This document shows positions 2,907 through 63,555 of a DNA stretch of 64,000 bases, piece by piece. Location of the stretch: positions 34,279-98,278 of the forward strand of contig JBKAGE010000045.1 in assembly GCA_046290225.1 (NCBI GenBank). Reading direction: 5' to 3'. A program made the position numbers and the translations under genes. The notes under the pieces were generated by a model that had not been told where the DNA came from, did no database searches, and worked only from the letters and a program-made list of their open reading frames with translations. The stretch is from Bradymonadia bacterium (GTDB lineage: Bacteria; Myxococcota_A; Bradymonadia; UBA7976; UBA1532). Positions within the stretch are counted from its first letter, which is position 1. Each line of letters opens with the position of its first letter.

Positions 2907-4133
2907 GTGCTGATCCAGCAAGCATATAAGTTCGAGCTTCGGCCCAATGGGGCCCAGCGCCGCCTGATGCACGTCTTCGCGGGCCAGTGCCGCTACGTCT
3001 ACAACAGGGCGCTGGCGATGCAGCGCGACCGCTACAAGGCCGAAGAAAAGAAGCTCGGGTACGCAGGCCTGTGCAAGGCACTGACGCAGTGGCGCAACGA
3101 CCACGAGACGTCGTGGCTCAAGATGGGCTCTGTGAGCACTCAGCAACAAGCCTTGTGTGACCTTGAGCGGGCGTACATCAACTTCTTCGCGGGGCGTGCC
3201 TCGTTCCCCAGCTTCAAGCGCAAGGGGGAGTATGAGAGCTTCCGCTTTCCCAATGCCAAGCAGTTCTACATCTGCCAGGGGCACAGCCGCATCAAGCTGC
3301 CCAAGCTGGGATGGGTGCGCTACCGCAACAGCCGTCGCATCGAAGGCACCCCAAAGAACGCCACGGTGAGCCTTCGGGCGGGCAAGTGGTACGTCTCTAT
3401 CCAGACAGAGCGAGAGGTGCCTGAGCCGGTACACCCTTCGCGCACGATGGTGGGCATCGACATGGGGGTGGCCCGACTTGCCACCTTGTCAGATAGCACG
3501 GTGTACGAACCGCTCAACAGCTTCAAGAAGCACCAGAGAGCCCTGGCCAATGCCCAGCGGGCAATGTCCCGCAAGGTGAAGTTCAGCCAGAACTGGCGCA
3601 AGGCAAAGGCCCGCATCCAGCGCATCCAGGCCCGAATCGCGAACGCTCGCAGGGACTACCTACACAAAGCCTCGAACGACATCAGCAAGAACCACGCGGT
3701 GGTCGTCCTCGAAGACCTCAAGGTGTCCAACATGAGCAAGAGCGCCAAGGGCACAGCGGAAGCGCCGGGCAAGAACGTGAAGGCCAAGTCGGGGCTCAAC
3801 AAGGCCATCCTCGACCAGGGGTGGGGTGAGTTCCGACGCCAGCTCGAATACAAGCAGAAGTGGCGGGGTGGTGAGGTGATAGCGGTGAATCCACGCAACA
3901 CCTCCCGCACCTGCCTACAGTGCGGCCATGTGTCAGCGGATAACCGCAAGACACAGGCCCGCTTCAAGTGCATCTCTTGCGGCTTTGAGGGCCATGCGGA
4001 CCTCGTTGCTGCGGAGAACATCAGAAGGGCAGGGCATGCCCGGATTGCCTGTGGAGGAGAGCCTGTAGAGGCCCCAGTGAAGCAGGAACCCATCGAGACG
4101 ACCTGCAACGCTGTCCAGCTGGGCTTGTTGTAG
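2907..4133 (+). CDS. tnpB: RNA-guided endonuclease TnpB (IS200/IS605 OrfB)
   Basis: AYKFELRPN...CRYVYN N-terminus; RuvC residues GIDMG, VLEDL, ADLVAAENI; CxxC...CxxC zinc ribbon. Confidence 0.97.
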   Translation: MLIQQAYKFELRPNGAQRRLMHVFAGQCRYVYNRALAMQRDRYKAEEKKLGYAGLCKALTQWRNDHETSWLKMGSVSTQQQALCDLERAYINFFAGRASFPSFKRKGEYESFRFPNAKQFYICQGHSRIKLPKLGWVRYRNSRRIEGTPKNATVSLRAGKWYVSIQTEREVPEPVHPSRTMVGIDMGVARLATLSDSTVYEPLNSFKKHQRALANAQRAMSRKVKFSQNWRKAKARIQRIQARIANARRDYLHKASNDISKNHAVVVLEDLKVSNMSKSAKGTAEAPGKNVKAKSGLNKAILDQGWGEFRRQLEYKQKWRGGEVIAVNPRNTSRTCLQCGHVSADNRKTQARFKCISCGFEGHADLVAAENIRRAGHARIACGGEPVEAPVKQEPIETTCNAVQLGLL

Positions 4134-4173: not shown

Positions 4174-4805
4174 TGTTCCTTGAGGAGGTTTTCTGGGCGG
4201 GTAACGATATAGCCAAGTGGAAAGAGCCCAGGTAGCTGCTCCGCAGAAACCACCTCGAACCCTGCACCCGAAATGAGCTGCTCAAGCGATGTGAGATCGA
4301 ACCGTGTGTGAGCAACGAATGGCGATACCATACTGAGTGCTCGGGACAGCCCACGTCTGAAGGCGTCGATATTGTGCAGGAATGTAGGTGCGATGAGCAC
4401 TCCTTCCGGCTTCAATACGCGGTGGAACTCGGAGAGCGCCTGCACCGGATCGTCCATCACATGAAGCGCATTGGCGCAGAATACGCCATCAAAGCTCCCA
4501 TCCGGTGCGTCGATATCGTATGCACTCATGACTGTGCATTCGACATTCTGAAGGCTCAGTTCGTCCATCCGTACTTGCAGTCGGGTGACCATTTCGGGTG
4601 AAATGTCAGTTGCCAGAAGGTGCTCGGCTTGTCCTGCCAGGTTGGGGGTGAATTGCCCCGTTCCTGCCGCGATCTCCAGCAGTCGTCCGCCAGAAGGCAG
4701 GTCGTGGCTCAGTCGTTCTCGTACCTTGTCGTAGCTTGAGTCGAACAAACGCACAACGGTGTCATAGCGGCCAGCGAGACGGTCCCATACACGTGCTTCA
4801 CTCAT
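4170..4805 (-). CDS. Class I SAM-dependent methyltransferase
   Basis: LLEIAAGTG motif I, ATDIS, SFDGVFCANALH, EFHRVLKPEG. Confidence 0.9.
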   Translation of the reverse strand: MSEARVWDRLAGRYDTVVRLFDSSYDKVRERLSHDLPSGGRLLEIAAGTGQFTPNLAGQAEHLLATDISPEMVTRLQVRMDELSLQNVECTVMSAYDIDAPDGSFDGVFCANALHVMDDPVQALSEFHRVLKPEGVLIAPTFLHNIDAFRRGLSRALSMVSPFVAHTRFDLTSLEQLISGAGFEVVSAEQLPGLFPLGYIVTRPENLLKEH

Positions 4806-7800
4806 ACCTTAACCTCTTCAAACTCCGCACCTGGGAGTTCATCTTCGTTGTCTTCATCGATTGCCATGCCGCCGAGCCAGCTGTACACAGCTGGCAACAC
4901 GAAGAGTGTTAGGAGGGTAGCGGTTATCAACCCCCCAATTACGACAGTGGCAAGTGGTCGTTGAACCTCGGCTCCGGCTGTCGTTGAGATGGCCATGGGA
5001 AGGAAGCCGATGCCATCCGTCAGTGCGGTCATCAGCACTGCACGAAGCCGAAGGCGAGCCCCTTTCTCAGTCGCGTCCATCAGCGAGAGTCCTTCACGCT
5101 GAAGGTCCCGGATGTAAGAGACCATGACGACACCATTGAGTACCGCGATGCCTGATAGGGCGATGAACCCCACTGCTGCAGAGATGGAGAATGGCATCTC
5201 ACGAAGCCAGAGGGCCAGGACACCACCAACTGCAGCCATGGGGATGTTCATATAGATAATGAGCGCTGGGCGAGCTGAGGCGAACGTCGTGTAGAGGAGC
5301 AGGAAGATCAGGAGAAGCGCGGCTGGTACAGCCACCGCGAGTCGAGCGCTCGCAGCTTGGAGGTTCTCGAACTGGCCTCCCCATGTAACGAAGTAGCCAG
5401 GTGGTAGACTCCCCTCGATGAGGATACGCTTCTGAGCTTCAGTAACAAAGCCGGCGAGATCGCGCCCACGTACATTGACCTGAATGGTCATACGTCGCTG
5501 AGCGCTCTCTCGGCTGACGACTGCTGGTCCTTCCTCCAAGAGAACCTGTGCGACCTGTCCGAGGGGTACACGCTTACCCCCTGGCACGGAGATGAGCAGT
5601 TCCCGCAGGGATTCAGGGTTGGCCCTGGATGCTTCCCGTAGTCGAACTTGGAGAGCGAAGCGTTGCTGTCCTTCGAAGACAATACCCACTTGCCGGCCCC
5701 CCACCGCAGCTACAGCATCGAGGATCTCAGATGCGTTGATGCCGTAGCGAGCAGCCACTCGGCGGTTGACGACGATTCGGAGTGATGGCAGCCCGGCTAC
5801 CTGGTCAGCGTTGACGTCCGCAGCTCCCGCGATCGAGCGCAACAACCGCATCACCCGCGCCCCGGTTCGCTCTAGCTCCTCAAAATCAGGCCCATAGAGG
5901 TTGATGGCGACATCTGAGCGCACTCCACTGATGAGCTCGTTGGTCCTAAGCTCGATTGGCTGAGAGAAAGAGTAGTTCTGGCCAGGCACCTGTTGCTCAA
6001 GCGTTGCGGCAATAGCCTCGACGAGCTTGGTCTTCGAATCCGCATGTGTCCACTGCTCAACTGGATGGAGCATGATGTAGATGTCAGAGAGCTCAACCCC
6101 CATTGGGTCTGTCGCGATTTCAGCTCTCCCGGTACGAGAGATGATTGTTTCTACCTCGTCAGGGAATGCTTCGATGAGCGTCTGCTCCACCCGGCTGGTG
6201 GCTGCTACTGATTCCTCAAGTGACACCGATGGAGGCCGAATCGCCTGCATCGCGATAGCCCCTTCGTCGAGTGTGGGGATGAATACCGCCCCCATCGTCG
6301 AGGCAAGCCACACACCACCAGCGATCACCATGATGGCGATGGCGATGACCAACAGGCGGAAACGTAAAGCAATCCTCAATGCTGGCTCATAGAGTCGCCT
6401 CGTGAGCCGAACAATAATGGGCTCTTTTTCGGATAGCCCACCATGGTAGAGCCAGGTGGCAGCTGCTGGCACCAGCGTGATGGCCAACACAAGGGCCGCC
6501 GCCAACGCCGACAGCACCACAATTGCCATCGGGCGGAACATCTTCCCTTCGATCCCCTGCAGCGAGAGGATTGGGATGTAGACGATCATGATAATCGCTG
6601 TCCCAAACAGAACTGGCCGCAGCACCTGCGTCGTGGCTCGACGCACCTCACCCTTGACGGCACGCCCTGTTGCTCTGCCTTCGGACAGCCGTCGTGAGAC
6701 GTTCTCGATAACGACGATTGCGCCGTCAATGATCAACCCGAAGTCGAGTGCCCCCATGCTCATCAGGTTCCCTGACACGCCGAAGAATCTCATTGAAATG
6801 AGTGTAAACAACAGGGATAGCGGGATGACTGCAGCTATGAGCAAACCACCACGCAGGTTCCCGAGCATCAGCAGGAACACGACAACGACGAGGACTCCAC
6901 CCTCAATGAGGTTGACGATGACAGTGTGGATGGTGCGATCAACCAGTACGGAACGATCGTAATAGGTAGCTATAGTCACCCCGGGCGGCAGCCCTGGGGC
7001 AAGCTCATCAAGGCGCTTGCGGACCGCCCGTGAGACATCGCCAGAGTTGGCACCCATCAACATCATCACCGAGGCTGTGACAACCTCTCCTCGGCCATCT
7101 CGGGTCACCGCACCTTGCCTGACCATGGGGGCAAATGTAACGTTGGCCACATCGCGGATGAAGATGGGTGTGTTGTTGCGGGTTGCGATCCGAACATCGC
7201 GAACATCATCGAGACTGGTGATGAGTCCTTCTCCGCGAACAATACGCTGCTCACCGCTGCGGACGATGTAGCCACCACCCTCGTTGGCGTTGTTTGCTTC
7301 AAGTGCGTTGAAGACCTCGCTCAGGCTGAGCCCTAGCGCGTTCAGCCTCCCCGGATCTACCTGGGCCTCGTAGGTCTTCAGTTCTCCACCAAACGGGTTG
7401 ACCTCAACCACACCAGGGATGGGACGGAGCTGGAATGCGACATACCAGTCGAGGATTGTGCGCAGCTCCATGAGTGAGTAGCACTCGTCGGTGTCTGGGC
7501 CTTCAGTAGGGCACATGGGATCGCCACGGACCTCAAACTGGTATATCTCCCCAAGTCCGGTCGAGATTGGCCCCATCTCCGGTGAGCCATACCCCTCTGG
7601 GATAGATTCGCGAGCCTCGGAGAGTCGCTCGGCAACCATCTGGCGCGCAAAGTAGATATTGGTTCCTTCCTCGAAAACCACCGTCACAGCTGACAAGCCA
7701 AAGCGTGACAAGCTGCGAACTTCCTCGACGTGAGGCAGGCCGCTCATCACTGTCTCGACCGGCACGGTGACGTACTGCTCAACCTCAATGGGACCGAGTG

Positions 7801-7960
7801 CGGGAGCGTTGGTGAGGACCTGTACCTGGACATTGGTTACGTCAGGAACGGCATCAATTGGGAGATGTTGTGCGGTGCGTACGCCGAGGGCTCCAATGAG
7901 CAGGACGACGAAGATGACGAGGAACCGATGCCGAACACAGAATGCGATGAATCTATTCAT
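4802..7960 (-). CDS. czcA: CusA/CzcA heavy-metal RND efflux permease
   Basis: 1052 aa; LPIDAVPDVTNVQVQ, NLMSMGALDFGLIIDGAIVVIEN, GIEGKMFRPMA, GAEVQRPLATVVIGG. Confidence 0.96.
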   Translation of the reverse strand: MNRFIAFCVRHRFLVIFVVLLIGALGVRTAQHLPIDAVPDVTNVQVQVLTNAPALGPIEVEQYVTVPVETVMSGLPHVEEVRSLSRFGLSAVTVVFEEGTNIYFARQMVAERLSEARESIPEGYGSPEMGPISTGLGEIYQFEVRGDPMCPTEGPDTDECYSLMELRTILDWYVAFQLRPIPGVVEVNPFGGELKTYEAQVDPGRLNALGLSLSEVFNALEANNANEGGGYIVRSGEQRIVRGEGLITSLDDVRDVRIATRNNTPIFIRDVANVTFAPMVRQGAVTRDGRGEVVTASVMMLMGANSGDVSRAVRKRLDELAPGLPPGVTIATYYDRSVLVDRTIHTVIVNLIEGGVLVVVVFLLMLGNLRGGLLIAAVIPLSLLFTLISMRFFGVSGNLMSMGALDFGLIIDGAIVVIENVSRRLSEGRATGRAVKGEVRRATTQVLRPVLFGTAIIMIVYIPILSLQGIEGKMFRPMAIVVLSALAAALVLAITLVPAAATWLYHGGLSEKEPIIVRLTRRLYEPALRIALRFRLLVIAIAIMVIAGGVWLASTMGAVFIPTLDEGAIAMQAIRPPSVSLEESVAATSRVEQTLIEAFPDEVETIISRTGRAEIATDPMGVELSDIYIMLHPVEQWTHADSKTKLVEAIAATLEQQVPGQNYSFSQPIELRTNELISGVRSDVAINLYGPDFEELERTGARVMRLLRSIAGAADVNADQVAGLPSLRIVVNRRVAARYGINASEILDAVAAVGGRQVGIVFEGQQRFALQVRLREASRANPESLRELLISVPGGKRVPLGQVAQVLLEEGPAVVSRESAQRRMTIQVNVRGRDLAGFVTEAQKRILIEGSLPPGYFVTWGGQFENLQAASARLAVAVPAALLLIFLLLYTTFASARPALIIYMNIPMAAVGGVLALWLREMPFSISAAVGFIALSGIAVLNGVVMVSYIRDLQREGLSLMDATEKGARLRLRAVLMTALTDGIGFLPMAISTTAGAEVQRPLATVVIGGLITATLLTLFVLPAVYSWLGGMAIDEDNEDELPGAEFEEVKV

Positions 7961-7969
7961 CTCGTATTC

Positions 7970-9223
7970 TCAGTGTGCGTGACCGTGGCCAAGCTCGCCA
8001 CGCATCAACTCAGACTTAAGAATGAAAGCCCCTTCCACGACGACCTGTGCCCCAGGCTCAAGCCCCGTGAGCACCTCGGCCAGCCGCGCGCTCTTTTTGC
8101 CGAGCGTCACTGGGTGGACAACAAATTCACCTTCTTCATCGCCAGGAGTGAACACAACAGTCTGCTCTTTGAGTATCTGAATCGATGAGAGTGGGAGGAC
8201 GACGGATGTGGGGGCTGGCTTGGTCGACGCGAGTCGAAGAGACCCGAAGAGGCCAGGGCGAAGTCGGCCGTCGGGGTTGTCGAGTTCTACGCGGACAGGC
8301 AGGGTACGAGTTGATTCGTCGAGTGTTGTGCCTACAAAATCGACAGTGCCCGTCCAATGACGGCTTGGATAGGCGTTCAGTGTAAGGGTTGCGCTCATTC
8401 CAAGAGCGGCTTGTGCGATCTGTTGCTCATAGACTCGGCCAATGACCCACACCCTCGAGAGGTCAGCTACGATAAAAAGTGTGTCTTGAGGCGAGACGTT
8501 CTCACCGCGAGTCGCGTGTCGCTCGACTACAACTCCAGTGATTGGGCTCTCCAGTGTCATGTCAGGCCCGCTGCCACCACGAAGCCCGAAGACCCGGAGG
8601 TGAGAGCGAGCTGCATCGCGCTCTGCATCGGCTTGCTTGTAGGCCAGCTCCGCTTCAAGCAAGCTGCGCTTGGAGCTGATGCCCTCCTTGCGCAAACGCC
8701 TCTGCCTGTCTCTGTTCTGCTCTGCGACGTTGCGCAATGAGTTCGTGCGGCTGAGCTCCGCACGAGCCTGCCCGAGCTCAACACTCCTCAGTTTCGCGAG
8801 CTGGGTTTTAGTCTCCACCTGGTCGCCCAACGTGACGTCTACGCTCAACAACTGCCCTTCAACGAGGGGGCTGATGTGAGCGACCCGGTCGGGGTTGAGT
8901 TGAACTTCTGCAGGAACCTCAATGGCATCAGTGAGTACGCCGGATTCTGCGATCCCTAGACGAATCCCACTCGTACTCTGGGCTTGAGGAGAGATCCGCA
9001 CCAATAGCTCTTCGGAACCTTCCTCGCCGTGGCTACGGTCTTCGTGCCCTTCCACTTCATCCATGTGTGGTTGCTGATCATGATTGTGCTCGTCGTTTGC
9101 ATGGAGCTCGTGGCTAGCTTGATCTTCATGAGATTCGTTCACATGATCATGACCGTTGGTGTCTTGACAGCCTGATCCCATTGGTAGAGCACAAATCAGA
9201 ATGAGCTGCATGGCGCGTTTCAT
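7970..9223 (-). CDS. czcB: CzcB-like periplasmic adaptor (membrane fusion protein) with His-rich N-terminus
   Basis: His-rich segment, SPITGVVVER, DLSRVWV, LRPGLF, ends GHGHAH; ATGA overlap with czcC. Confidence 0.92.
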   Translation of the reverse strand: MKRAMQLILICALPMGSGCQDTNGHDHVNESHEDQASHELHANDEHNHDQQPHMDEVEGHEDRSHGEEGSEELLVRISPQAQSTSGIRLGIAESGVLTDAIEVPAEVQLNPDRVAHISPLVEGQLLSVDVTLGDQVETKTQLAKLRSVELGQARAELSRTNSLRNVAEQNRDRQRRLRKEGISSKRSLLEAELAYKQADAERDAARSHLRVFGLRGGSGPDMTLESPITGVVVERHATRGENVSPQDTLFIVADLSRVWVIGRVYEQQIAQAALGMSATLTLNAYPSRHWTGTVDFVGTTLDESTRTLPVRVELDNPDGRLRPGLFGSLRLASTKPAPTSVVLPLSSIQILKEQTVVFTPGDEEGEFVVHPVTLGKKSARLAEVLTGLEPGAQVVVEGAFILKSELMRGELGHGHAH

Positions 9224-10599
9224 GGGGCGCTCTCCTTGTCGGGCCACAGCTCTGTGCCGACCAGGCCTTCGAGGGTTGCAGCGGTTTCGTGGTAGGTGAT
9301 GCGTGCGTCGATGTATTGCCCAGTTGCGGTCAATAGCCGCTCGCGCGTCTGTGAGACTTGGTGAACGTCAACTTCACCAAGCTCGTAGGCTCGTTGGAGC
9401 AATGAGAGATTCGCCTCGAGCTGTGGGACGACATCTGTCTCGTATAGAGCGACACGCTCTACAGCTGCGTTAAGTGCGATTGCGGCCTGAAGGAGCTCAC
9501 CCCGAAGCTTAGCTGCCGTTGCTTTGCGCTCTCTGCCCGCAACTACCAGCTTGGCCTCGGCGAGCGCGCGGCCATCCTGGTTGGTCCGCCAGACTGGAAT
9601 CGGGAAGGTCAGATTAAAAAGCCAGATGTCGGCCTCTCCCTCTGGGCCGGGGGCGGCCTCTCGGCTATAAGAGAAGCCAACAGTAGGCTCAGGCCACGCT
9701 TCTCGATCTTCCAGCGAGAGCCGACTCTGACCCGCAACCACGGCAAGCTCACGGGTGCGAAGTGAGGGGTGGTTCTCAGCCATCAATACTAAAAGTGCAT
9801 CTGTGTCTGCCGCAGGCCGCACACCTGGCAGTGTGCCTTGGACCTCAGGTAGCGTTGTCTCTGGCCAGCCGATGACTGCGGCTAGCCGGGCGGTCAGCGA
9901 CTCCCCTGTTTGCTGAGCCTCAATGACCGCCTCACGAGTTTGCGCCAGATCAGCGTCAGCCACCAGCAAGATGAGGGGTGACGACTCTCCTGCCTTCACC
10001 TGTTGAGCCGCGATATTGCGCATGGATTGCGCGAAAGCCACGAAACGCTCCGCCTGAGCAAGCCGCTCGCGTACCAGCAGGATATCGACGAAGAGTCGGT
10101 GCACCTCCACATGTACGCTCCATCGGATCTCATTGACGGCTGCTTCGCTGAGACGTTGTTGATCCTCCGCAGCATCGAGCCTCAGCCCCGGCTCACCGGC
10201 AATCTCAAGTTGCTGCTGAACAGCCACCTCAAACTCGAAGCCAGTCGCGTTCTCGACCGTGCGCCTACCAACGCCGAAGCTAAACTGCGGATTCGCAGGG
10301 AGCACGATGTTGGCGCCAATTACCCCCGCCTTGGCTAACCCGACCCGTGCCCATGCTGTTTGAATCACCGGAGAGTGTGAATCAGCGTATATCAACGCCT
10401 GCTCAAGTGTCAGTGCGGATATTTTCGACGGTTCTATAGGCTTCCCAGCTGGAACATATGGCAGGACTGTCTCCGCTGGTGCGTAGACGCCTGGCTTTGG
10501 CAGAGGCCTTGTCATTCGGGTTGGTGCACACGCTGTCACCAAGCTACTACTGGTGATAGTAATTGAAGGTAGCAACCAGCCAAGGAGAGTACGCCACAT
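9220..10599 (-). CDS. czcC: CzcC/TolC-family outer-membrane factor
   Basis: Lipoprotein-like Cys, PANPQF, LQRAYELGEVD; operon position. Confidence 0.88.
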   Translation of the reverse strand: MWRTLLGWLLPSITITSSSLVTACAPTRMTRPLPKPGVYAPAETVLPYVPAGKPIEPSKISALTLEQALIYADSHSPVIQTAWARVGLAKAGVIGANIVLPANPQFSFGVGRRTVENATGFEFEVAVQQQLEIAGEPGLRLDAAEDQQRLSEAAVNEIRWSVHVEVHRLFVDILLVRERLAQAERFVAFAQSMRNIAAQQVKAGESSPLILLVADADLAQTREAVIEAQQTGESLTARLAAVIGWPETTLPEVQGTLPGVRPAADTDALLVLMAENHPSLRTRELAVVAGQSRLSLEDREAWPEPTVGFSYSREAAPGPEGEADIWLFNLTFPIPVWRTNQDGRALAEAKLVVAGRERKATAAKLRGELLQAAIALNAAVERVALYETDVVPQLEANLSLLQRAYELGEVDVHQVSQTRERLLTATGQYIDARITYHETAATLEGLVGTELWPDKESAP

Positions 10600-10611
10600 A
10601 CGAACCTCGAC

Positions 10612-11619
10612 TTAGAGCAGGGAGTGGAGCAGGCGCTCCACCTCAAAATGGAAATATTCGAGCAACCCCAGGTTGTCGATATGAGGCGTGGTGAGGGAGG
10701 CAAAAACGCCAACAGCCAGGACTATGTGGCCAATGGTGCGTACAGGAGCTGGAGGCCCATTCATAAGCAGCTCGAGCCGTAGCTTGAGCGCAGCTCCATT
10801 GTGACCACAGAGCGCCACACCATGCGATAGAAGGCCTTCACAGCGGAACTTGGCGGCTCGAACAATCCCCTCAGCCAAAGCGAGAGGCTCTCCGCCTCGG
10901 TGGACTGCTTCACTATCGCAGACAGCTTCGCGCGCTGCACGCCATCGCTCGAAGTCAGGAGAGAGGAGAGCACTGGTAGGATTGACGGCAAGGCAGAGAC
11001 GAGCGAGGAAGCCTCTGAGCGTATCCAGTCCAGCAATATGAGCGTGCTCATGCAGGAGCACCGCGTGTAGGACTTCTGGGTCTGAGTCTCGAATGAAGCA
11101 AGCGTCGACCACCACAATGGGACGCAACAAGCCCAACGTGTAGATCGGCTCAGTCGACTTGCGCACCACTACAATACGTAGAGAGTGGAGATGGGCATCT
11201 TGTTCAGCGGTGTCCATGATCCGTCTGACGAGGTCGTGTTCACACCCCAGCCGTTGGAGCTTAGCTCGGGGCCACTCCCGCCAGAGTCGAACAGCAATCA
11301 TGCCTGTCATTCCAACCACCAGAAACCCAAGCAACAGCAGCGTGTCGACGCAGATCGTTGCTTCCATGTGATTGATGAAACAGGAGTCTGAGTTATGTGC
11401 TGGCTCGCTCTGATGGAGCACTGACGAAGTCAGCCACAGTACAGGAAACAAGGTTGGTGCAACGAGCCAGGCGAAGGTTGCTTCCGAACCAAAGCTTGCC
11501 CAGTTCGCAGCTCGCCGGCGGTTAAGTGAGAGCGCAACTCGGCTCCCCAACGTCAGCAGTGGGATCAAGACGAGGAATGTCGCAGCGACCGCAGTGAGCG
11601 GAAAAAAGAGATCATTCAT
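10612..11619 (-). CDS. M56 (BlaR1-like) membrane metallopeptidase
   Basis: TM segments, [16 protein letters not shown] (HExxH), REAVCD. Confidence 0.88.
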
Positions 11620-12038
11620 GATCCCCCTCTTCTTCGCTTGCGAATCAGGACTTCCAGACGGTCCAATTCCGCATCATCAGCCTCCGCAACCCGTTCGACC
11701 AAGAATGCAACTGCAGCCTCCTGGCCCACAGGAGGAAGGCTCCCGAGCACCTCTCGGGTCATCGCCTGGATGAACTCGGACCGGCCCATTGTGGATTGAT
11801 AGAGGTAACGCCGGCCTTCCTTGCGCCTGGTCAGAAGCTCCTTGTCATAGAGCCGGCTGACTGTGGTCATCACCGTCGTGTACGCAATCTCTCGTTGGCC
11901 CTCGAGTATTTCGTGGACATCGGTGACCGCGAACTCGTCCCACCCCTTCTCCCAGACAGCCTCCATAATCTCGGCTTCGAGATCATACAGCGATGTGCGC
12001 AGCCCATCCTGCTCAGGCCGAATTCGAATGCCTTTCAC
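11616..12038 (-). CDS. BlaI/MecI/CopY-family repressor
   Basis: [10 protein letters not shown]...[33 protein letters not shown] start with GGAGG SD. Confidence 0.93.
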
Positions 12039-12084
12039 AACTGCCTCCACGCACAATTGCGTCGGTTAGGGAACTTGACCTCAC

Positions 12085-18191: not shown

Positions 18192-18220
18192 TTGACTGAA
18201 CATAGGGTCAGTTGTAGGGT
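18192..18220 (+). promoter_or_regulatory. Sigma70-like promoter facing opposite to the flanking genes
   Basis: TTGACT-17-TAGGGT; overlapped by CAACAC-N7-GTGTTG. Confidence 0.6.
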
Positions 18221-18226
18221 TTCCCT

Positions 18227-18348
18227 CGGTGGGCCGGTTGGTCTTGGGGCCCTGCCCCGCCCCCCACACCCAAGGGCGGCCGACTCCACCAATCTTCTTG
18301 AACCCCCCCGAGCAACCTTGACTCCCTGCTCGGGGGGGTTTTGTTTTT
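18227..18348 (+). ncRNA. Candidate ~120-nt structured small RNA
   Basis: Lies between a promoter and an intrinsic terminator; long imperfect hairpin GGTGG...CTTGGG/CCCAAG...CCACC; no start codon with SD. Confidence 0.45.
18301..18348 (+). terminator. Intrinsic terminator
   Basis: 14-bp perfect stem AACCCCCCCGAGCA/TGCTCGGGGGGGTT followed by a T-rich tail on +. Confidence 0.75.
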
Positions 18349-18352
18349 GGGC

Positions 18353-21473: not shown

Positions 21474-21911
21474 TCAGCCTGCCTTCTGGGCCGGGGCGGC
21501 GCCTACCAGATCCAAGGCCTCGGGGTGGGCGTCGAGTACTCGGAGCAGGTTCGACAGTGCCTGACTCGGCACGATGGAACCCGACTCATACTTATTGAAG
21601 GCTTTGACCCCGCCGCCGAGACGGATCCCAGCCTGTCGCTGGCTCAACCCGAGGCGCTCACGGATCGTCCGAACCTGGGCCGGCGAGAGCACCCCCTTGG
21701 CCTCGGCGCGCAGTTCCTGGTGTGCCTCGAAGCTCATGCGCGCCTCTGCACCAGTGAACAGGGCCTCGCCACATGCATTGCACCACCAGCCGGGCTGCAT
21801 GATCTCACGAGAGAGGGTCACACCCCCATCGGTGTACTCAACGACGTCGGGGCGCGTCTCATGGACCATGCCAGGGGCGCCACAGGACGGACACGTGGGT
21901 TGCTTGCTCAT
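21474..21911 (-). CDS. mqsA: MqsA-family antitoxin (Zn ribbon + HTH)
   Basis: CPSC...CNACGE; IRERLGLSQRQA...GGGVKAFNKYESG. Confidence 0.93.
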   Translation of the reverse strand: MSKQPTCPSCGAPGMVHETRPDVVEYTDGGVTLSREIMQPGWWCNACGEALFTGAEARMSFEAHQELRAEAKGVLSPAQVRTIRERLGLSQRQAGIRLGGGVKAFNKYESGSIVPSQALSNLLRVLDAHPEALDLVGAAPAQKAG

Positions 21912-21934
21912 GTCGATTCTCCTGGCCTGCGGCC

Positions 21935-22252
21935 TTACTTCTCTTTGAACGAGATCAGCCGGTAGCTGAACTCGATGATCTGATCCTCGCCGAACTTCAC
22001 ATACAGCATGCGACCCTCAACCCTGATGCAGGGCACATGGTAGACGTCCTGCCACTTCCTGTGATCGCCGTGGACCGTCATGCTCTTGTAGCAATGGCGA
22101 GGCTTGATGGTCTCGATCAGGGTCAAGATCTCGGCTTCATAGTACCCGAGATCCCTGGCGGTCTTCGTGGCCGTTCGGGTGATGCTCAACCCACCCTCGC
22201 TCATCTGCTTCTTGATGGCGTCGAGAGAGTAGTGTGCGCTTCGCTTTTCCAT
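21935..22252 (-). CDS. mqsR: MqsR-family mRNA interferase toxin
   Basis: MEKRSAHYSLDAIK...TRTA...YKSMT...WQDVYH...YVK...ISFKEK. Confidence 0.95.
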   Translation of the reverse strand: MEKRSAHYSLDAIKKQMSEGGLSITRTATKTARDLGYYEAEILTLIETIKPRHCYKSMTVHGDHRKWQDVYHVPCIRVEGRMLYVKFGEDQIIEFSYRLISFKEK

Positions 22253-22270
22253 AATCCCTCGCCCAAACCG

Positions 22271-22306
22271 TGTCATCATTGTGGTGACATTGGAGTAAAG
22301 AGTCAA
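22271..22306 (-). promoter_or_regulatory. mqsRA promoter and operator
   Basis: TTGACT-17-CACAAT; palindrome TGTCA-N9-TGACA (22271-22289) overlapping the -10. Confidence 0.65.
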
Positions 22307-22307
22307 T

Positions 22308-22325
22308 GGGGGGCGATTGCCCCCC
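22308..22325 (-). terminator. Hairpin after the cassette-1 gene
   Basis: GGGGGGC-AATC-GCCCCCC on the minus strand. Confidence 0.6.
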
Positions 22326-22332
22326 GTGCGTT

Positions 22333-22656
22333 TCAGTAGACCCGGCAACGACCAGAGATGAGTGCGCGGTCCTCTTCGAGGCCGAAGATGGTGTCGAAGA
22401 CGACATGCAGGGTGCCGACATGCTCACCGCATTCGAAGCACACCGCGTTGGGATCTTGCGCATCCCGATCAGTGATCGTCTTGGGGCCCTGGCCCTGGAT
22501 GCGGGGCGTCTCCGATCCACAGCAAGGGCACCTCTCCGGCTGCAGGTGGTTCACCGGGCGGTCTGAGCGACGCCCGAGGTAGACGAACTTGGCGCCCTCG
22601 TTGGGCAGGGTGCAGTGGAAGGTGTGACCGTCAGTGGTGATGAGGGTGATGTTCAT
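22333..22656 (-). CDS. Small Zn-finger hypothetical protein (leader cassette 1)
   Basis: CPCCG...CFECG; ATG is the last codon of the repeated leader. Confidence 0.7.
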   Translation of the reverse strand: MNITLITTDGHTFHCTLPNEGAKFVYLGRRSDRPVNHLQPERCPCCGSETPRIQGQGPKTITDRDAQDPNAVCFECGEHVGTLHVVFDTIFGLEEDRALISGRCRVY

Positions 22657-22698
22657 GGTGTGTCTCCGAAGGGAGTGTCCGAGGTCCGCTCGGTCGGG
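22654..22698 (-). repeat. Repeated structured leader, copy 1
   Basis: CCCGACCGAGCGGACCTCGGACACTCCCTTCGGAGACACACCATG. Confidence 0.95.
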
Positions 22699-22724
22699 TT
22701 GTTGACCATCGCCAACTGATAAAG

Positions 22725-22816
22725 ACTCTATCACCGACCTCCCTCTGTGGCAACCCTAAACAAAAACAAGTTTGTGTTGTTTTGGTGTTGACTCGAAGGA
22801 GGGGCTTCGGTATAAC
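22725..22816. promoter_or_regulatory. Divergent sigma70 promoters
   Basis: Minus: TTGCCA(22753)-17-TAGAGT. Plus: TTGACT(22788)-17-TATAAC. A/C-rich spacer between them. Confidence 0.8.
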
Positions 22817-22842
22817 CATAATCACTGAGCGACACAGAGTTG

Positions 22843-22891
22843 CTCACCCGGCCGAGCGGACCTCGGACACTCCCTTCGGAGACACACCATG
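22843..22891 (+). repeat. Repeated structured leader, copy 2
   Basis: CTCACCCGGCCGAGCGGACCTCGGACACTCCCTTCGGAGACACACCATG. Confidence 0.95.
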
Positions 22892-23122
22892 AACGCCATC
22901 AACACCAACTCCACCCTCAAGCCCACCACCAACGGCGCCATCTTCTCGGTGGCCCACTTCCACGCTCGCAACCGTGAGGGTGGCACCTACCGTGCCGCCT
23001 TCGCAGCCACCCTTCGGGCCATCACCACCATCCTGAAGACCTTCGAGGCTCGCTTCGACTGCGAGCCCGAGGACTGCGAGTGGAGCGAACTCTGCTACTT
23101 CCTCAACACCGCCCTCGACTGA
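22889..23122 (+). CDS. Small hypothetical protein (leader cassette 2)
   Basis: Strong C-ending codon bias; promoter, leader and terminator all present. Confidence 0.75.
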   Translation: MNAINTNSTLKPTTNGAIFSVAHFHARNREGGTYRAAFAATLRAITTILKTFEARFDCEPEDCEWSELCYFLNTALD

Positions 23123-23129
23123 GGGCAAC

Positions 23130-23152
23130 GGGGGGCGCAAGCCCCCCTGTTT
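23130..23152 (+). terminator. Intrinsic terminator
   Basis: GGGGGGC-GCAA-GCCCCCC-TGTTT. Confidence 0.75.
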
Positions 23153-23251
23153 CGGCCTGCTACCACGCGATGTGAGACCGGTGACCCCTTCGTCAAGAGG
23201 GTCACCATCCGACCGGGAGGACCCCGGAAGTCCCCATGTGGAGATGCACCC

Positions 23252-23797
23252 ATGATCATTACCCCCTTCATGACGGCCTCTGAGGTCCAAGCATCGGCCG
23301 AGAGCCAGGCAACCTATGCCCAGGTCCAGGCTGAGCCACTGAGGGCGCTGTATGCGTCCCTGTGGGCCGATCCCCATCGAACCGCTGGCGTCTATGCGAG
23401 GGCGTGCGGGCTTGGCGAGATCGATGCGCTACGTCGGCTGAACCAGCTTCAACGCCTCGGGCTTGTGGAGTCGAGCCCCGTCGAGTGGATCGGAGATCGC
23501 GTCATCAGCTGGAGCCCTTGTGGCTTCCGCCCTGGCGCCGTGGGCTTCAGTCTCAGTGATCAGACCATCCGCTGGACCGGGATGCATGGCAGCCGCACCA
23601 TCTCATGGGCCGAGCACGACAAGCTCATCGATGTCTTTGGCGCCACGTCCTGGCATGTAGAGGCCTGGACCCCGCTCCACTGGGCACGGCTGATGGCCCA
23701 CCCCATGGGCTCCACCTGGGCCCTGCGCTCCCTCCTGTGGACAGGGCTGTGTCACGACGTGGCGCTGCTTCCCGTCGCCGAGCGGGGAGTCTCATGA
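23252..23797 (+). CDS. Hypothetical protein, possible wHTH
   Basis: YARACGLGEIDALRRLNQLQRLGLVE; GGAG SD. Confidence 0.6.
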   Translation: MIITPFMTASEVQASAESQATYAQVQAEPLRALYASLWADPHRTAGVYARACGLGEIDALRRLNQLQRLGLVESSPVEWIGDRVISWSPCGFRPGAVGFSLSDQTIRWTGMHGSRTISWAEHDKLIDVFGATSWHVEAWTPLHWARLMAHPMGSTWALRSLLWTGLCHDVALLPVAERGVS

Positions 23798-24012
23798 GCC
23801 ACGTGTGTCAGCCCTGGAATGTGGCCTGGTTGACCTACGGTGGACCGGTCTTCGCCGTGTTGAGCGGTGGGGAAATTATCAGCGGAGAGGCGACGGACCG
23901 CCGTCTGGGACCAGGTGTTCCGCTGATCCGGGTAAGCCAGCCGGAGTCAGGTCGTGAGGTGTGGCTGCACCCTCGATATGTCTGGCCACGCTGGAAGCCG
24001 CCAGAGTCCTGA
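23794..24012 (+). CDS. Small hypothetical protein
   Basis: ATGA coupling with the upstream gene. Confidence 0.5.
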   Translation: MSHVCQPWNVAWLTYGGPVFAVLSGGEIISGEATDRRLGPGVPLIRVSQPESGREVWLHPRYVWPRWKPPES

Positions 24013-24118
24013 TGAATGCCCGAGGGGCACCAAAGGCCATACCCCGGGGCGGATGCCCCCTTTCCTTGAGCTGGGCGATATGATGTTTGACCCTCATGGG
24101 CCACGAGATGGAGATCTG

Positions 24119-24946
24119 ATGAGCGAAACTTACACCACCGTTGCCGGCGAGAAGATCACCTACGACGCTCCGGAAGCTCCGATCATGAGCTTCCTGCTTG
24201 AGGTCATGCACACGGCTGCAGATCCGAAGGTAAGCACCATGGCCCTGTACGATCTCGTGCACGGGGTACGTAACCCGATCCTCCGCCAGGGGGTCGTGCC
24301 TGGGCGAGGCATCGTGACTGATGAGGCCTACGACGATCCCGTCTACCGCATCATGCTCGATCAGATCGCCCTCAAGCGCATCGCACGGGGCGACGCCGAC
24401 ACCTCCACCGAGGGCGCCAAGATCTTCAACCTCTCCGTCTCTGAGGCGGCCGAGATCATCGGCATCTCGCCGCAGGGCGTGCGCAACTCGCTGAGCCGTG
24501 GATCTTGGCCGTACGTCCGCAAGGACGGCCGCATGATGATGGCCATCGAAGATGCCGAGCGGTGGCGCGACAAGCATCAGAACCGAGGCGCCGGGGGCAG
24601 CAAGACCCCAGGCCAGGCCGAGGCGGCGCCGTCGGGGGCTCTTCAAGTCCGCCTCGGCAACGTCAAGGGGCTGTCGTTCTTCGTGAAGAATGCGGCACCA
24701 GACCTGGCGAACAAGCGAGCCGATGGACGCCACGTGCATTGCGGCGAGATCCCCGAAGGCTGGCAGCGGATCGCAGTCAAGAGAGCTGAGGGCAAGAAGA
24801 GCACCATGTTCGTGCTCGAGCCCGGGCCGGAAGAGGCAGAGATCGAGTGGAAGGGGTTCTATGTCCGCGGGCGGTTCACCATCACACAGAAGATCAACAA
24901 CGCCCGCGAGATCAGCGCGGCATGGAAGGCGTTCGAGCCTGCTTGA
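24119..24946 (+). CDS. HTH_17 (excisionase-like) domain protein
   Basis: LSVSEAAEIIGISPQGVRNSL...RKDGR; GGAG SD. Confidence 0.7.
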   Translation: MSETYTTVAGEKITYDAPEAPIMSFLLEVMHTAADPKVSTMALYDLVHGVRNPILRQGVVPGRGIVTDEAYDDPVYRIMLDQIALKRIARGDADTSTEGAKIFNLSVSEAAEIIGISPQGVRNSLSRGSWPYVRKDGRMMMAIEDAERWRDKHQNRGAGGSKTPGQAEAAPSGALQVRLGNVKGLSFFVKNAAPDLANKRADGRHVHCGEIPEGWQRIAVKRAEGKKSTMFVLEPGPEEAEIEWKGFYVRGRFTITQKINNAREISAAWKAFEPA

Positions 24947-24990
24947 GGGGGCCGATTTTCTAATTTTCGCAAACCGGCCTCGCCCTTACC

Positions 24991-25443
24991 TCAGGCCCCT
25001 TCCAGAGCCTCCCGCACCGCTTCTCGGATGGCCTCAACCCCACCTTGTTGCTCACGGATGTTCGCCATCCACATCTTGGTGAAGTCGCACTGCTCTTCCA
25101 CCGCTATAGGGCGGAAGCGCACAGGCCGATCGGCGCCATCGAGCTCAAGGGCCTCCTGGAAGTATGGGGGGATGGACCTCGAGAAGCTCACCGGCAGCCA
25201 TGCATCAGTGGCTTCGATGTAGATGAACTCCATGTCAGGATCTGAGCACATGTCGCCGTTTTGCAGGAAGTAGTGAGCCACCGAGAACCGGTGCTCAGTC
25301 AGGCGGTTCACATAAACCGCCATGTATACGCCGTCACTGTTATCGAATTTGATGCCCTGGCCTTCTTTCAGCCCATCAGTAAGCGCCTTGAGGACGTCCG
25401 AGACCTGAGTGATGCCTTCGTCGCCAAAGAGGAAATTTGTCAT
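24991..25443 (-). CDS. DUF6908/DUF1249-like protein (leader cassette 3)
   Basis: YMAVYV...SVAHYFLQNGDMCSDPDMEF...WMANIREQ. Confidence 0.75.
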   Translation of the reverse strand: MTNFLFGDEGITQVSDVLKALTDGLKEGQGIKFDNSDGVYMAVYVNRLTEHRFSVAHYFLQNGDMCSDPDMEFIYIEATDAWLPVSFSRSIPPYFQEALELDGADRPVRFRPIAVEEQCDFTKMWMANIREQQGGVEAIREAVREALEGA

Positions 25444-25489
25444 GGTGTGTCTCCAAAGGGAGTGTCCGAGGTCCGCTCGGTCGGGTGAG
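25441..25489 (-). repeat. Repeated structured leader, copy 3
   Basis: CTCACCCGACCGAGCGGACCTCGGACACTCCCTTTGGAGACACACCATG. Confidence 0.95.
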
Positions 25490-25515
25490 AGGCTCAACGC
25501 CCATCAGTGAGTACA

Positions 25516-25544
25516 TTTATACTCGCTCTGTCTTGCCTTGTCAA
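25516..25544 (-). promoter_or_regulatory. Near-consensus sigma70 promoter
   Basis: TTGACA-17-TATAAA. Confidence 0.85.
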
Positions 25545-25656
25545 CACGGATTCAGCACAACGGTGTGTTGTTTTTGTTGTCTGGTGAGGTGGATCTGTTT
25601 CGTCAAAGATGTCTGAAGGGTGTGAGGCTCTCCTGTGACTTGCACAGGAGGTCCGA

Positions 25657-33997: not shown

Positions 33998-35586
33998 TAC
34001 TGCTCCCCAGACAGCATGCCCTCAGGCAGACGGTTCTCGGGCAGGTTGGCCCGGGGCGCAGGGTTGACCTTCACGCCCTCTTGCCCAGTGTCGAAGATCT
34101 CCCCCATCAGCGCTCTCGCCTCACTGTCCAGATCCTCAAGATCCCCCTGCTCTGCGATGCGCGGCAGCACCCCCTCGAGGGCCTTTTCTTTGGAGGTGTC
34201 ATCAGCGATCCGCTCAGCGTCCATCTTCGACAACCCGGCGCCGTGCTGCAGGGCCAACACCAGGGGTACCCCTGCGATGACATATTGGGCCGTCGCCCGG
34301 GCCCTGGAGAACGCCACGTCGGCGCGGAGCTGCTCGTCGAAGGCCGTCGGCGGCTTCATCTCGATGTGCCACTCACCGTCCTTGGGTGTGATCCCCTCAA
34401 GCATCAGGCTGCGCAGGTGCAGATCTGCCATCAGCTCGGCACAGTCCTGCTGGCCCTCGATGATCTGCTGAGCGTAGACCTTGCCCTGCACCTCGGCGCT
34501 GTTCTTGCCGTTGATGTCCTTCTCGTGGCCCAGGAGGATAGGCGGTGTACCCACGTCGATGAACTTGTGACGCTCCAGCGCCTCGAAGACTTTGAGGCAG
34601 GCCTCGATGGATGGGGCCCGGCGCTGATGGAAGCTCGGCCCCTTGCCCGTCGTCGACGGCTTGAAGGGGATGATCTTGGGGATCATGCGCAGCAGCTCGA
34701 CGGGGCGCTTTACCATGGTGCCCTGGGCGTCGAACCACACCTGGTCATCGAGGTTGTCTTCGATGTTCTCGATGAACTCTGCGATGTCGGCCGGTGTTTG
34801 ATAGTTGAAGGGCCACAGGATGGACTCGCCACCCTGCCCCTCCTGAAGCACCTGCAGCATGATCACATCGAGGATGGCCTCAGCCTTGCGCCGGGTGCTG
34901 CGCCCCGAGTGCCACATGGATCGGCCATAGTGACTGTTCAGGGGTCGATCTGGCGCGTAATGGAGCACGAAGAAGGGGTGCACCCGGCGCCATGAGTGCC
35001 CGCTCTCTCGTAGCTCGTAGTAGTTCCCCTGAGCGCTGATCATCACTCGCATGTGCTCTGCAGCGTGTGGCCGCACGCCGAGGAACCCGGTCTTGTCTGC
35101 CATGAGCTCGACGATGCCATCTCCGACCCACCGCCCCTCTTCGAGCAGGCCTCGCACCAGCGTGTGGGTGTTGAGCCGGGTCTGATCTGCAGCGAGCAGA
35201 CGCTTCACCTCTGGGCGGGCGCCGTCATCCACGTGGAGAATGTAGCTGGCTCGACTGCCGGTGGGCGTCTTCGCAGCCTGGGACTGTGGTGCGAAGACCA
35301 TCTCCTGCCACCGGCGAAGTGCCCGGTAGTAGATCCCCTCCTCGTCCGCCATCTCCCGGTATTCGGCGTAGCGTTGCTGGCGAGACGCCTCATGCGCCTG
35401 GTGCATCTGGCGCAACCATGCGTCGGCCTGCTGTGCATGGCCCATGTTGGCATGGTGTGGGGTGGAGCGTTTCTGGTGGCGCTGGAAGGTAGGCCCCGCC
35501 GGGGTCATCAGGGAGACCTGGACGGACGGTTGGGCGGCAATGCGGCCCACCCTCGAGATGATGGCGTTGGAGAGACGGTCGAACAT
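33997..35586 (-). CDS. Probable portal protein
   Basis: 529 aa; RYAEYREM, GDGIVEL, VLHY...YGRS, GTPPILLG; upstream of the MuF-like gene. Confidence 0.75.
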   Translation of the reverse strand: MFDRLSNAIISRVGRIAAQPSVQVSLMTPAGPTFQRHQKRSTPHHANMGHAQQADAWLRQMHQAHEASRQQRYAEYREMADEEGIYYRALRRWQEMVFAPQSQAAKTPTGSRASYILHVDDGARPEVKRLLAADQTRLNTHTLVRGLLEEGRWVGDGIVELMADKTGFLGVRPHAAEHMRVMISAQGNYYELRESGHSWRRVHPFFVLHYAPDRPLNSHYGRSMWHSGRSTRRKAEAILDVIMLQVLQEGQGGESILWPFNYQTPADIAEFIENIEDNLDDQVWFDAQGTMVKRPVELLRMIPKIIPFKPSTTGKGPSFHQRRAPSIEACLKVFEALERHKFIDVGTPPILLGHEKDINGKNSAEVQGKVYAQQIIEGQQDCAELMADLHLRSLMLEGITPKDGEWHIEMKPPTAFDEQLRADVAFSRARATAQYVIAGVPLVLALQHGAGLSKMDAERIADDTSKEKALEGVLPRIAEQGDLEDLDSEARALMGEIFDTGQEGVKVNPAPRANLPENRLPEGMLSGEQ

Positions 35587-48904: not shown

Positions 48905-49570
48905 TCAGGCTCTTAGTATGTATGTTCTTAGTGAAATGCGCGCGCCCGGAGTCTGAGGATCGCGCATGTGTATGCCCGCAGGGGGGAGCCCCCCCTTGAG
49001 CCCCCCCTTGAGCCCCCCTTTGAGCCCCCCTTTGAGTGCCCCCTTGAGTCCCCGAGTCCCCGCTCGATTGAGGTATGCCGATGAGCCCAGATCAGGGAAT
49101 TGGAGGACAGGGGCCGCATTCATGATTTCACGCGCATGCTCATAAGCATCAGCTACAAGAAGCCTGAGCTGTTGCCCCTGGCTAAGCTCGACTTGACAGG
49201 ACCACGCTTGACCCGGCTTGGTCTGCTGAGTCGTCAAGACACCAATTGTCTTGAGTCGGTAGATGCTGCTTTGGACTGATCTGATCGTAACGCTCAAGTA
49301 GGAGGCAACACTCCTTCTGGTCACAGTCTCTTCGGACTTCTTCATACGCATGATGGCGATGAGAACTTTGAGGTCACCATGCGAGACTTGGTCAACTCCA
49401 AATTCTGAGTCGGCCTCAGTTTGGATAGAAGCGACTACTTCAAGGCTCAGGCCTGGGTGAACCGTCCTTCCTCTTCGAGAGGGCGGTCCTACATCTCTCC
49501 TACGAGATGAGTGGAATGAAACCGTGGCCTGGGATGTAGAAGGTCTGCGATGGGCTTTGTGGGATGACAC
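48905..49570 (-). CDS. wHTH replication initiator (N-terminal part)
   Basis: DLKVLIAI...TRRSVASYLSVTIRSVQSSIYRLKTIGVL. Confidence 0.65.
   Translation of the reverse strand: MSSHKAHRRPSTSQATVSFHSSRRRDVGPPSRRGRTVHPGLSLEVVASIQTEADSEFGVDQVSHGDLKVLIAIMRMKKSEETVTRRSVASYLSVTIRSVQSSIYRLKTIGVLTTQQTKPGQAWSCQVELSQGQQLRLLVADAYEHAREIMNAAPVLQFPDLGSSAYLNRAGTRGLKGALKGGLKGGLKGGLKGGLPPAGIHMRDPQTPGARISLRTYILRA
48986..49061. repeat. ~5 tandem 12-bp G-rich repeats (iteron-like)
   Basis: Minus-strand unit CTCAAGGGGGGG/CTCAAAGGGGGG, degenerating at one end. Confidence 0.9.
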
Positions 49571-63031: not shown

Positions 63032-63555
63032 AAGAGCGTCCCATCCTCTTCAAGCCCCGGCTGGTACGAGCCATCCTCAGTGGCCAAAAGACTCAGACAC
63101 GGCGCCTCGCCAAGAACGGTCGCCGCTCCATAGAAACAGGCGACCACCTCTGGGTGCGAGAGAGCCACTTCTTCACCGAGGGGCCCGTCGCCTGGTATCC
63201 CGATATGCCTCACCGGCAAGGCGTATACAAAGATCAGCCGGTGACGGTTCAGTACCGCGCGGCCTTCCATGGCACAGAGCCAAGCCGCTGGCGGCCCTCG
63301 ATCCATATGCCGAAGTGGGCATCACGCATCACCCTCGAGGTCACCGAGGTGCGCTGGCAACGCCTGCAGGAGATCACCCCACAAGACATCCTGGCTGAGG
63401 GGGTCGGGGATCCCAGTCTCTCAGACGAGGCACTCCTTCTTCTCTGGAAGAACCTCTGGGACAGCATCAACGGCAAGAAACCCGGTGCGTCCTGGGACGA
63501 CGATCCCGAGGTGTGGGCCTACACCTTCAAAGTTATCAATGGAGACACACCATGA
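63028..63555 (+). CDS. ASCH-domain phage protein
   Basis: PILF...AILSGQKTQTRR...GDHLWVRE...WRPSIHMP. Confidence 0.88.
   Translation: MKERPILFKPRLVRAILSGQKTQTRRLAKNGRRSIETGDHLWVRESHFFTEGPVAWYPDMPHRQGVYKDQPVTVQYRAAFHGTEPSRWRPSIHMPKWASRITLEVTEVRWQRLQEITPQDILAEGVGDPSLSDEALLLLWKNLWDSINGKKPGASWDDDPEVWAYTFKVINGDTP

Follow-up and report, generated by a model that had tools for sequence, protein, structure and literature searches.

Each of the leader repeats known from phages, such as the promoter-early stem-loop (PeSL) elements, the SAS repeats and the Aca motifs, goes with a single phage group or a single regulator. We analysed a leader shared by three small genes in a stretch of 64,000 nucleotides (the window), which forms the last 64 kb (positions 34,279 to 98,278) of a 98,278-bp contig (JBKAGE010000045.1, called C45 here) in the 8.58-Mb assembly of a Bradymonadia bacterium (GCA_046290225.1). 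From its gene content, the contig reads as one temperate phage. The leader contains a 19-nt core that recurs upstream of different small genes in unrelated phages, and comparison of its copies indicates that the motif is a real, virus-enriched RNA leader.

PeSL elements of T4-type phages are repeated intergenic modules in which a sigma70 promoter, a stem-loop, a Shine-Dalgarno (SD) sequence and an ATG precede variable ORFans, and they have been proposed to provide homology for shuffling (PMC2839356, PMC4122927). The original prediction invoked these elements for the present array, but membership is not supported. PeSL stem-loops lie mostly between the -35 and -10 boxes or over the -10 box and act as terminators (PMC2839356, PMC4122927), and the promoter is part of the repeat, whereas the conserved stem here lies downstream of the -10 box directly before the ribosome binding site (RBS), the promoters differ between cassettes, and the copies face both ways. 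Moreover, the phage here is temperate (integrase, ParA and a repressor-like gene) and not T4-type, and the core is common to unrelated phages. The Aca1 and Aca2 motifs in the 5' untranslated regions (UTRs) of acr-aca operons show a similar order of promoter with inverted repeat, structured 5' UTR, small cargo gene and downstream helix-turn-helix (HTH) gene, with one regulator serving several operons (PMC13551039). However, those motifs are hairpins tied to an Aca family, and that paper never uses the word pseudoknot, whereas the core described here is mostly found, among the records compared, without the HTH gene of this array, and the HTH domain in this array is of the HTH_17 type.

SAS and ESAS of Cluster K mycobacteriophages are repeats at the translation starts of non-structural genes, with a proposed role in translation initiation; they comprise a 13-bp asymmetric sequence at the RBS and 17-bp inverted repeats, and are confined to one cluster (PMC3203893). 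The present core differs in sequence; its stem covaries, it sits ahead of the RBS, and its flanks vary between records. In pLS20-family plasmids, conserved upstream elements called EGeRS likewise group variable establishment genes into a regulon, but EGeRS1 spans 400-600 bp, EGeRS2 acts via a ribbon-helix-helix repressor at promoters, and both are found on plasmids (PMC8708921). Finally, upstream structures or pseudoknots enable initiation at the sequestered RBS of tisB and timP (PMC6690012, PMC11228461), which is the mechanism proposed here, but these are single chromosomal toxin genes with long-range, antisense-RNA-controlled arrangements, and no antisense partner was found for the leaders in this array.

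We observed a 25-nt core that is identical at 22669-22693 (-), 22852-22876 (+) and 25456-25480 (-), with no match in 100 shuffles. The surrounding 45-nt copies differ by 1-2 bases, and each ends at the ATG of a different ORF (107, 77 and 150 amino acids), exactly as had been predicted. Their three positions were also correct, with a CCCG start common to copies 1-3 at 22698, 22847 and 25485, while the outer limits first given for two of them (22843 and 25489) include four extra bases common to those two copies. These three are the only near-exact leader copies in the whole assembly. Overlooked earlier were a diverged fourth copy, a sequence-variable hairpin predicted directly 5' of the core in all four copies, and an HTH gene inside the array. 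The fourth copy, at 23209-23227, precedes a 181-amino-acid (aa) ORF and carries a compensatory change of a stem A-U pair to G-C. A descriptor consisting of a 5-bp stem, an NGGAC loop, an SD and a start codon gave seven matches genome-wide, four of them within the 2.8-kb array. Elsewhere in the window, at 63540-63555 (+), the 3' end of the leader alone (SD to ATG, 16 nt) stands before another ORF behind a different hairpin, and may be a chance occurrence or a remnant.

Hexamers with the predicted 17-bp spacing (22753/22725, 22788/22816 and 25544/25516) were present 26-30 nt upstream of the leader in three copies, with promoter spacers unrelated to each other, but in two of the three the -10 box is without its last T, and a consensus scan omits these two. 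Three of the four copies thus combine a sigma70-like promoter with an AT-rich upstream region, an SD and an ATG in one intergenic module, the core beginning 27-31 nt downstream of the -10 box. There is no U tract after the core; the SD comes next. Both leader hairpins of the original fold were predicted again, but with unremarkable folding z-scores against shuffles (0 to -1.8). The second of them masks the SD in copies 1-3 (3-4% unpaired; -3.3 kcal/mol). It recurs in 0 of 20 other records that carry the core, and was therefore rejected as a defining part of the element and considered local to this phage. The G/C-run hairpins reported behind two cassettes are present at 22308-22325 and 23130-23147, but a terminator scan lists neither. 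Copies 2 and 3 face each other 2.6 kb apart and, to judge from this arrangement, could invert the intervening 2.6 kb. The features of the array are as follows.

22308..22325 (-): G/C-run hairpin past ORF 1, without a U tract
22333..22656 (-): cargo ORF 1, 107 aa, with two CxxC pairs; an orphan with one homologue (81% identical)
22654..22678 (-): SD within a weak hairpin of 4 bp, then spacer and ATG; almost identical between copies 1, 2 and 3
22679..22697 (-): conserved core of copy 1 (CCG, purine, 5-bp stem, loop CGGAC), with predicted pseudoknot
22701..22716 (-): variable 5' hairpin (P1) of copy 1, predicted fold
22725..22753 (-): predicted sigma70 promoter of cassette 1, -35 box at 22748-22753 and extended -10 box at 22725-22730
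22766..22780 (no strand): near-palindromic ACAA-N7-TTGT tract, a candidate DNA operator lying between promoters 1 and 2, which diverge
22788..22816 (+): predicted sigma70 promoter of cassette 2, omitted by the strict scan
22826..22846 (+): variable 5' hairpin (P1) of copy 2, predicted fold of 8 bp, -10.2 kcal/mol
22848..22866 (+): conserved core of copy 2
22889..23122 (+): cargo ORF 2, 77 aa, without family
23130..23147 (+): G/C-run hairpin past ORF 2, with a short U tract only
23180..23206 (+): variable hairpin (P1) of copy 4, predicted fold
23209..23227 (+): diverged core of copy 4, loop AGGAC, A-U to G-C stem change, without its own consensus promoter
23252..23797 (+): cargo ORF 4, 181 aa, without family
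23794..24012 (+): 72-aa ORF coupled to ORF 4, without family
24046..24059 (+): terminator-like hairpin preceding the HTH gene, from the terminator scan
24119..24946 (+): protein of 275 aa in three parts, the central one an HTH_17 (Xis/MerR-like) domain; candidate promoter regulator
24991..25443 (-): cargo ORF 3, 150 aa, DUF6908
25466..25484 (-): conserved core of copy 3
25486..25506 (-): variable 5' hairpin (P1) of copy 3, predicted fold
25516..25544 (-): predicted sigma70 promoter of cassette 3, omitted by the strict scan
25557..25571 (no strand): inverted repeat ACAAC-N5-GTTGT on the upstream side of promoter 3, a candidate DNA operator

The original prediction had called for a search of the genome and its relatives with the leader; further copies of the core were found in unrelated phages. 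An exact 23-nt leader had no match in viral contigs, BLAST of 60 relatives gave chance matches only, and annotated phage and plasmid collections gave only short chance matches. Model R1, run on 112 other genomes of the class with 45 candidates per genome scored, gave four weak matches (E 0.009-0.06), none with leader context on inspection. A pattern search of 401 genomes of the phylum gave four matches, none convincing, and the same pattern overlooked this genome's own copies. Searches for loci related to ORF 3 found none, and those for ORF 1 found one homologue only. Since the exact leader was not found elsewhere, we relaxed the pattern for wider scans. The first of these produced 74 loci, and all the convincing ones carried the loop CGGAC; when two stem pairs were left free, both were paired in 10 of 39 rows, where chance would give about 1 in 16.

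The cleanest test fixed the promoter, the CCG with its purine and the loop, and left the stem and the SD free. Among 15 distinct viral matches (20 rows), five had four Watson-Crick pairs (5/8 of those starting with C), and an SD and an ORF followed in four of these five. With the same pattern and one more fixed base, none of the 116 distinct matches among those listed for cellular genomes (120 rows) was fully paired, so that the viral and cellular sets, among the matches listed, differ by Fisher's test at 1e-5. In a further scan, 10 of 22 distinct matches were fully paired, five of them new and five known from earlier scans. All ten were followed by an SD, a start codon and an ORF of at least 83 aa, compared to two of the 12 others. 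When the CCG and the loop C were altered in the pattern, fully paired matches fell to 1 of 21 (Fisher 0.004).

A family descriptor was then applied to 25 chosen sources and returned 34 rows, of which L456+10962 and L471-4652 were dropped as chance. The remaining 32 elements lie in 21 records, namely this contig, 15 viral records, four metagenome records and one bacterial contig. They share a 19-nt core consisting of CCG, a purine, a 5-bp stem and a loop of CGG plus 2-4 nt, in which CGG is kept and the tail varies (AC, AA, AT, GT, ACC, ACT, TTC or ACCC). Three inner stem pairs vary on both sides (19 cells; 0/500 shuffles) in a set of sequences that was chosen for pairing. Overall, the 5-bp stem is well supported. 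The loop is asymmetric and one-stranded, and the element is always oriented toward the SD. The end of the stem lies 17-33 nt from the start codon (median 22; the descriptor allowed 9-43, and the two dropped rows are still counted). Core copies occur both after promoters and in promoterless intergenic spacers, and it is the distance to the start codon that is constant, in promoter-proximal and internal copies alike. Of 31 elements, 18 have a hairpin directly adjoining the core, against 10 expected.

In four other records (G068, G069, G074 and L334), several copies precede different small ORFs. Flank identity was 0.56 within records (20 pairs) and 0.32 between records (541 pairs), both figures again including the two dropped rows. 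Flanks are therefore more alike within than between records, which bears out the local copying that had been proposed and argues that the copying takes place within each phage, from a leader version of its own. The spacers of two arrays, L451:8500-9330 and L449:4800-6400, show a longer common frame (stop codon, CCTGA and a G/C hairpin), even where the core is lost; this frame is possibly a second motif. An all-against-all comparison found no protein common to all 19 motif-bearing records, the widest cluster being terminase, in five. Among 24 downstream proteins from other records, 21 lack a clear Pfam family, and the other three are a FAD oxidoreductase, HU and a PD-(D/E)XK nuclease, the last two from weaker member records.

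These copies in unrelated phages and the covarying stem agree with the original view that the variable small genes are preceded by a cis-acting RNA module not described before. Rfam covariance models gave nothing near a gathering score. No description of the motif was found in a literature search that left subscription papers largely outside its coverage, and a screen of viral structured RNAs (PMC10690425) gave no motif match in six supplement files, the large files 1, 2 and 4 being outside the search. The motif may sit unnamed among the candidates of that screen, and is apparently undescribed.

The CCG that lies 1-2 nt ahead of the stem is complementary to CGG, the first three bases of the loop. 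When scans placed no constraint on the upstream bases, CCG was found at this position in 7 of 12 hairpins against a background of 7.4% (P 7e-6), and in an alignment of 20 sequences 95% of cells are paired between CCG and CGG. Both sides have changed in two array members, to CCC/GGG in G069 and ACTC/GAGT in L334. Given this complementarity and the two variants that change on both sides, the core probably folds as a compact pseudoknot. The predicted fold would comprise a 3-bp stem, a 1-nt linker, the 5-bp stem and a linker of 2-4 nt, often with the variable hairpin directly 5'. In viral records L122, L126, L146 and L167, CCG and CGGACC are kept right after the promoter in a nested variant, folded as a plain nested stem; the partner of the outer stem lies 5' of the CCG, an arrangement in which a pseudoknot would not form.

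On the comparative pattern it is very likely, in our judgement, that the core works at the RNA level. A function at the DNA level alone, as a PeSL-like homology patch or a palindromic operator copied between cassettes, is very unlikely. It would account for the 45-nt near-identity of three copies, the within-record likeness of the flanks, a stem that is also a DNA palindrome and the unremarkable z-scores, but not for a core kept between phages with no other common DNA, single-copy ones included, nor for the strand-specific loop with its constant orientation toward the SD, nor for the joint change of both arms within one phage, as seen in copy 4.

We tentatively favour a function of the core as a translation-promoting docking and insulating site that host ribosomes read, on the model of tisB and timP. 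The core lies just outside the stretch of about 20 nt that is covered by a ribosome. Host ribosomes would dock beside whatever gene follows the core, and in this phage the core would let them open the weak SD hairpin. Since the same core occurs in phages without a common protein, the reader would be a host factor, such as the 30S subunit or S1. Each phage would duplicate its own leader version, so that a newly captured ORF would arrive with its expression signal; the local copying probably also supplies homology for cassette exchange. The HTH protein would act separately, on the inverted repeats of the promoters at the DNA level. In tisB, a 5' structure is needed for standby binding of S1 and the 30S subunit (PMC6690012), and in timP a pseudoknot is needed for translation (PMC11228461).

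Several observations weigh against a pseudoknot that docks ribosomes. Both compensated variants of the short stem were chosen by eye from arrays with several spacers; otherwise this stem is nearly invariant, with none of its three pairs changing on both sides in 20 sequences, and a scan designed for compensated short stems found none. The short stem of copy 4 contains a G-A mismatch, and two weak matches carry GCG in place of CCG. Linkers of 1 and 2 nt are also sterically tight. In one relaxed viral scan just 1 of 37 distinct matches was fully paired, as were 6 of 116 in a scan of metagenomes that fixed one pair in advance. Nor is the SD hairpin, which standby binding would serve to relieve, a general feature. 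As for the reader, S1 fails to bind the compact, stably folded preQ1 pseudoknot (PMC7038950). Finally, position alone does not separate a translation site from a decay roadblock or an operator, on the sequences compared.

An mRNA-stability module, in which the pseudoknot blocks 5'-to-3' decay of the RNase J type just outside the ribosome footprint, is in our view unlikely but deserves the first hearing among the alternatives. Together with the G/C hairpin after each ORF, it would bracket the cargo gene as a stable monocistronic message. The same spacing to the start codon, the promoterless internal copies, the G/C hairpins without U tracts that follow cargo ORFs here and in G063, G067 and G424, and an RNase J-like gene of the host (E 4e-96, below the family cut-off) are all consistent with it, and flaviviral exonuclease-resistant RNAs (xrRNAs) reportedly provide a precedent for such a roadblock. 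On the other hand, a second block seems redundant where promoter-proximal copies carry a 5' hairpin anyway, and nothing points to a ring-like xrRNA topology.

An RNA operator for a phage repressor, as described for Aca1 and Aca2, would implicate the HTH_17 protein, which would bind both the promoter repeat and the leader RNA and end cargo translation after an early burst. We judge this improbable, although Aca-bound RNA motifs occupy the same position in the 5' UTR (PMC13551039) and inverted repeats abut the -35 boxes. Full-length homologues of the HTH_17 protein (24119-24946), 32% identical, occur in G063 and G067, where a promoter with its inverted repeat is followed by the leader, a 102-aa ORF, a G/C hairpin and the HTH gene; in G424, found by protein search alone, a full-length homologue also follows a leader and a cargo gene. 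Inverted repeats resembling the 22766-22780 tract abut the -35 box in G063, G067 and L512. However, an HTH homologue was found in only 2 of 18 other motif records compared, many of them fragments, and a protein search of 400 genomes gave seven HTH loci, four of them full-length, with the leader at one of the four (L511); L512 has the same cargo family ahead of its HTH gene without a leader. The regulator and the leader are therefore separable modules. In addition, an Aca motif tracks its own protein, whereas the present core stays the same from one unrelated phage to another; the HTH domain is HTH_17, and the core is clear of the SD.

The HTH protein itself likely controls the cassette promoters at the DNA level, through their inverted repeats, in a layout reminiscent of acr-aca operons (PMC13551039). 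The three-part HTH_17 family comprises 58 proteins and is a candidate for an Aca-like regulator by analogy; a fold search with the HTH model gave nothing at E 0.001, and only matches to small MerR/Xis-type domains. Members of the family are repeatedly encoded behind a small cargo gene and then a G/C hairpin, and the promoter of such loci bears an inverted repeat. The cargo family of about 102 aa ahead of the HTH gene, with a weak match to phrog_3543, was seen at L456:5859-6167 (-), L452:5452-5760 (-), L511:934-1248 (+) and L512:1096-1419 (+), and is a good candidate for counter-defence assays. With regard to the cargo of this array, ORFs 1, 2 and 4 had no family match, PADLOC found nothing for the cargo ORFs, and assignment of a host through one cargo protein gave no match. 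DUF6908, the domain of ORF 3, is elsewhere fused to ArdcN, Peptidase_M78 or LPD11, all of them domain types known from the polyvalent proteins that phages and conjugative elements encode (PMC5512222). These fusions hint at early counter-defence cargo, and the anti-defence role proposed originally is kept as a lead only.

Very unlikely, to return to the remaining readings of the core, is a promoter-proximal antiterminator of the put or boxB type, which would make RNA polymerase read through the hairpin behind each cargo gene. The core does lie near the 5' end of predicted early transcripts, and ORF 4 and the HTH gene sit behind hairpins without their own consensus promoter, but the fixed distance is to the start codon and not to the promoter, arrays carry one copy per gene, most downstream hairpins lack U tracts, and no boxA-like element was seen. 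CsrA prefers an A before GGA, with the consensus A(N)GGA in a loop, and the spacing of the two GGA motifs fits its known arrangement. Repression by host CsrA through GGA in the hairpin loop and GGA in the SD about 20 nt away is nevertheless the least probable reading, since, although the host encodes CsrA and the copy 4 loop has AGGA, the base before GGA is almost always C, four copies lack a loop GGA (three with CGGTTC in G074 and one with CGGGT in G424), and the upstream CCG is left unexplained.

The array belongs to an accessory block of the phage, which is flanked by an MqsRA pair and a CHAP-domain gene that adjoins terminase. The part of the contig within the window encodes terminase, DnaB, DnaC, a Sak4-like annealing protein, methyltransferases and a repressor-like HTH protein, and the integrase, ParA and a tape-measure-like gene lie on the same contig outside the window. 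The MqsR/MqsA toxin-antitoxin pair (21474-22306, -) is directly 3' of cassette 1, with a promoter-like site just past the cassette hairpin. An RND efflux set (AcrB-family pump, membrane-fusion and outer-membrane proteins) with BlaI/BlaR-like regulators lies at 4802-12056 (-) and is adjoined by a transposase at 2907-4133. An ABC-three-component-type locus (CTD10, DUF2326) was seen at L536:7104-10029 (+), on contig C45 outside the window. A 16-nt word occurs near both contig ends (C45 97-112 and 98165-98180) with no exact copy elsewhere in the assembly, and is a possible attachment core or assembly trace. Tandem 12-bp repeats (n at least 4) at 48986-49045, near replication genes, are possible origin iterons. 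A candidate small RNA at 18192-18350 (+) has a promoter with a cassette-like upstream inverted repeat, a predicted three-way junction and a strong terminator (z -3.1); Rfam gave nothing near the gathering score for it, and a 67-nt copy of its junction, 94% identical, is present on contig C61:11026-11092. We rejected this RNA (18224-18350) as an antisense partner of the leaders, as its pairing was no better than that of shuffles (24-177 of 200 equally good).

The occurrence of the same core in phages without a common protein points to a host reader and a general way to express swapped-in genes. Taken as a whole, the proposal that unrelated phages share one minimal, sequence-specific RNA pseudoknot recruiting the host ribosome is a speculative one that we consider less likely than not; it would make the core a portable bacterial translation-entry element, stamped before captured early genes, and a tag for counter-defence proteins of uncultured hosts. 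If the core promotes translation or blocks decay, it would offer a compact 19-nt part for synthetic biology. Whatever its mechanism, the core flags orphan genes close to promoters, a place where counter-defence proteins are often encoded, and would therefore provide a homology-free way to list counter-defence candidates.

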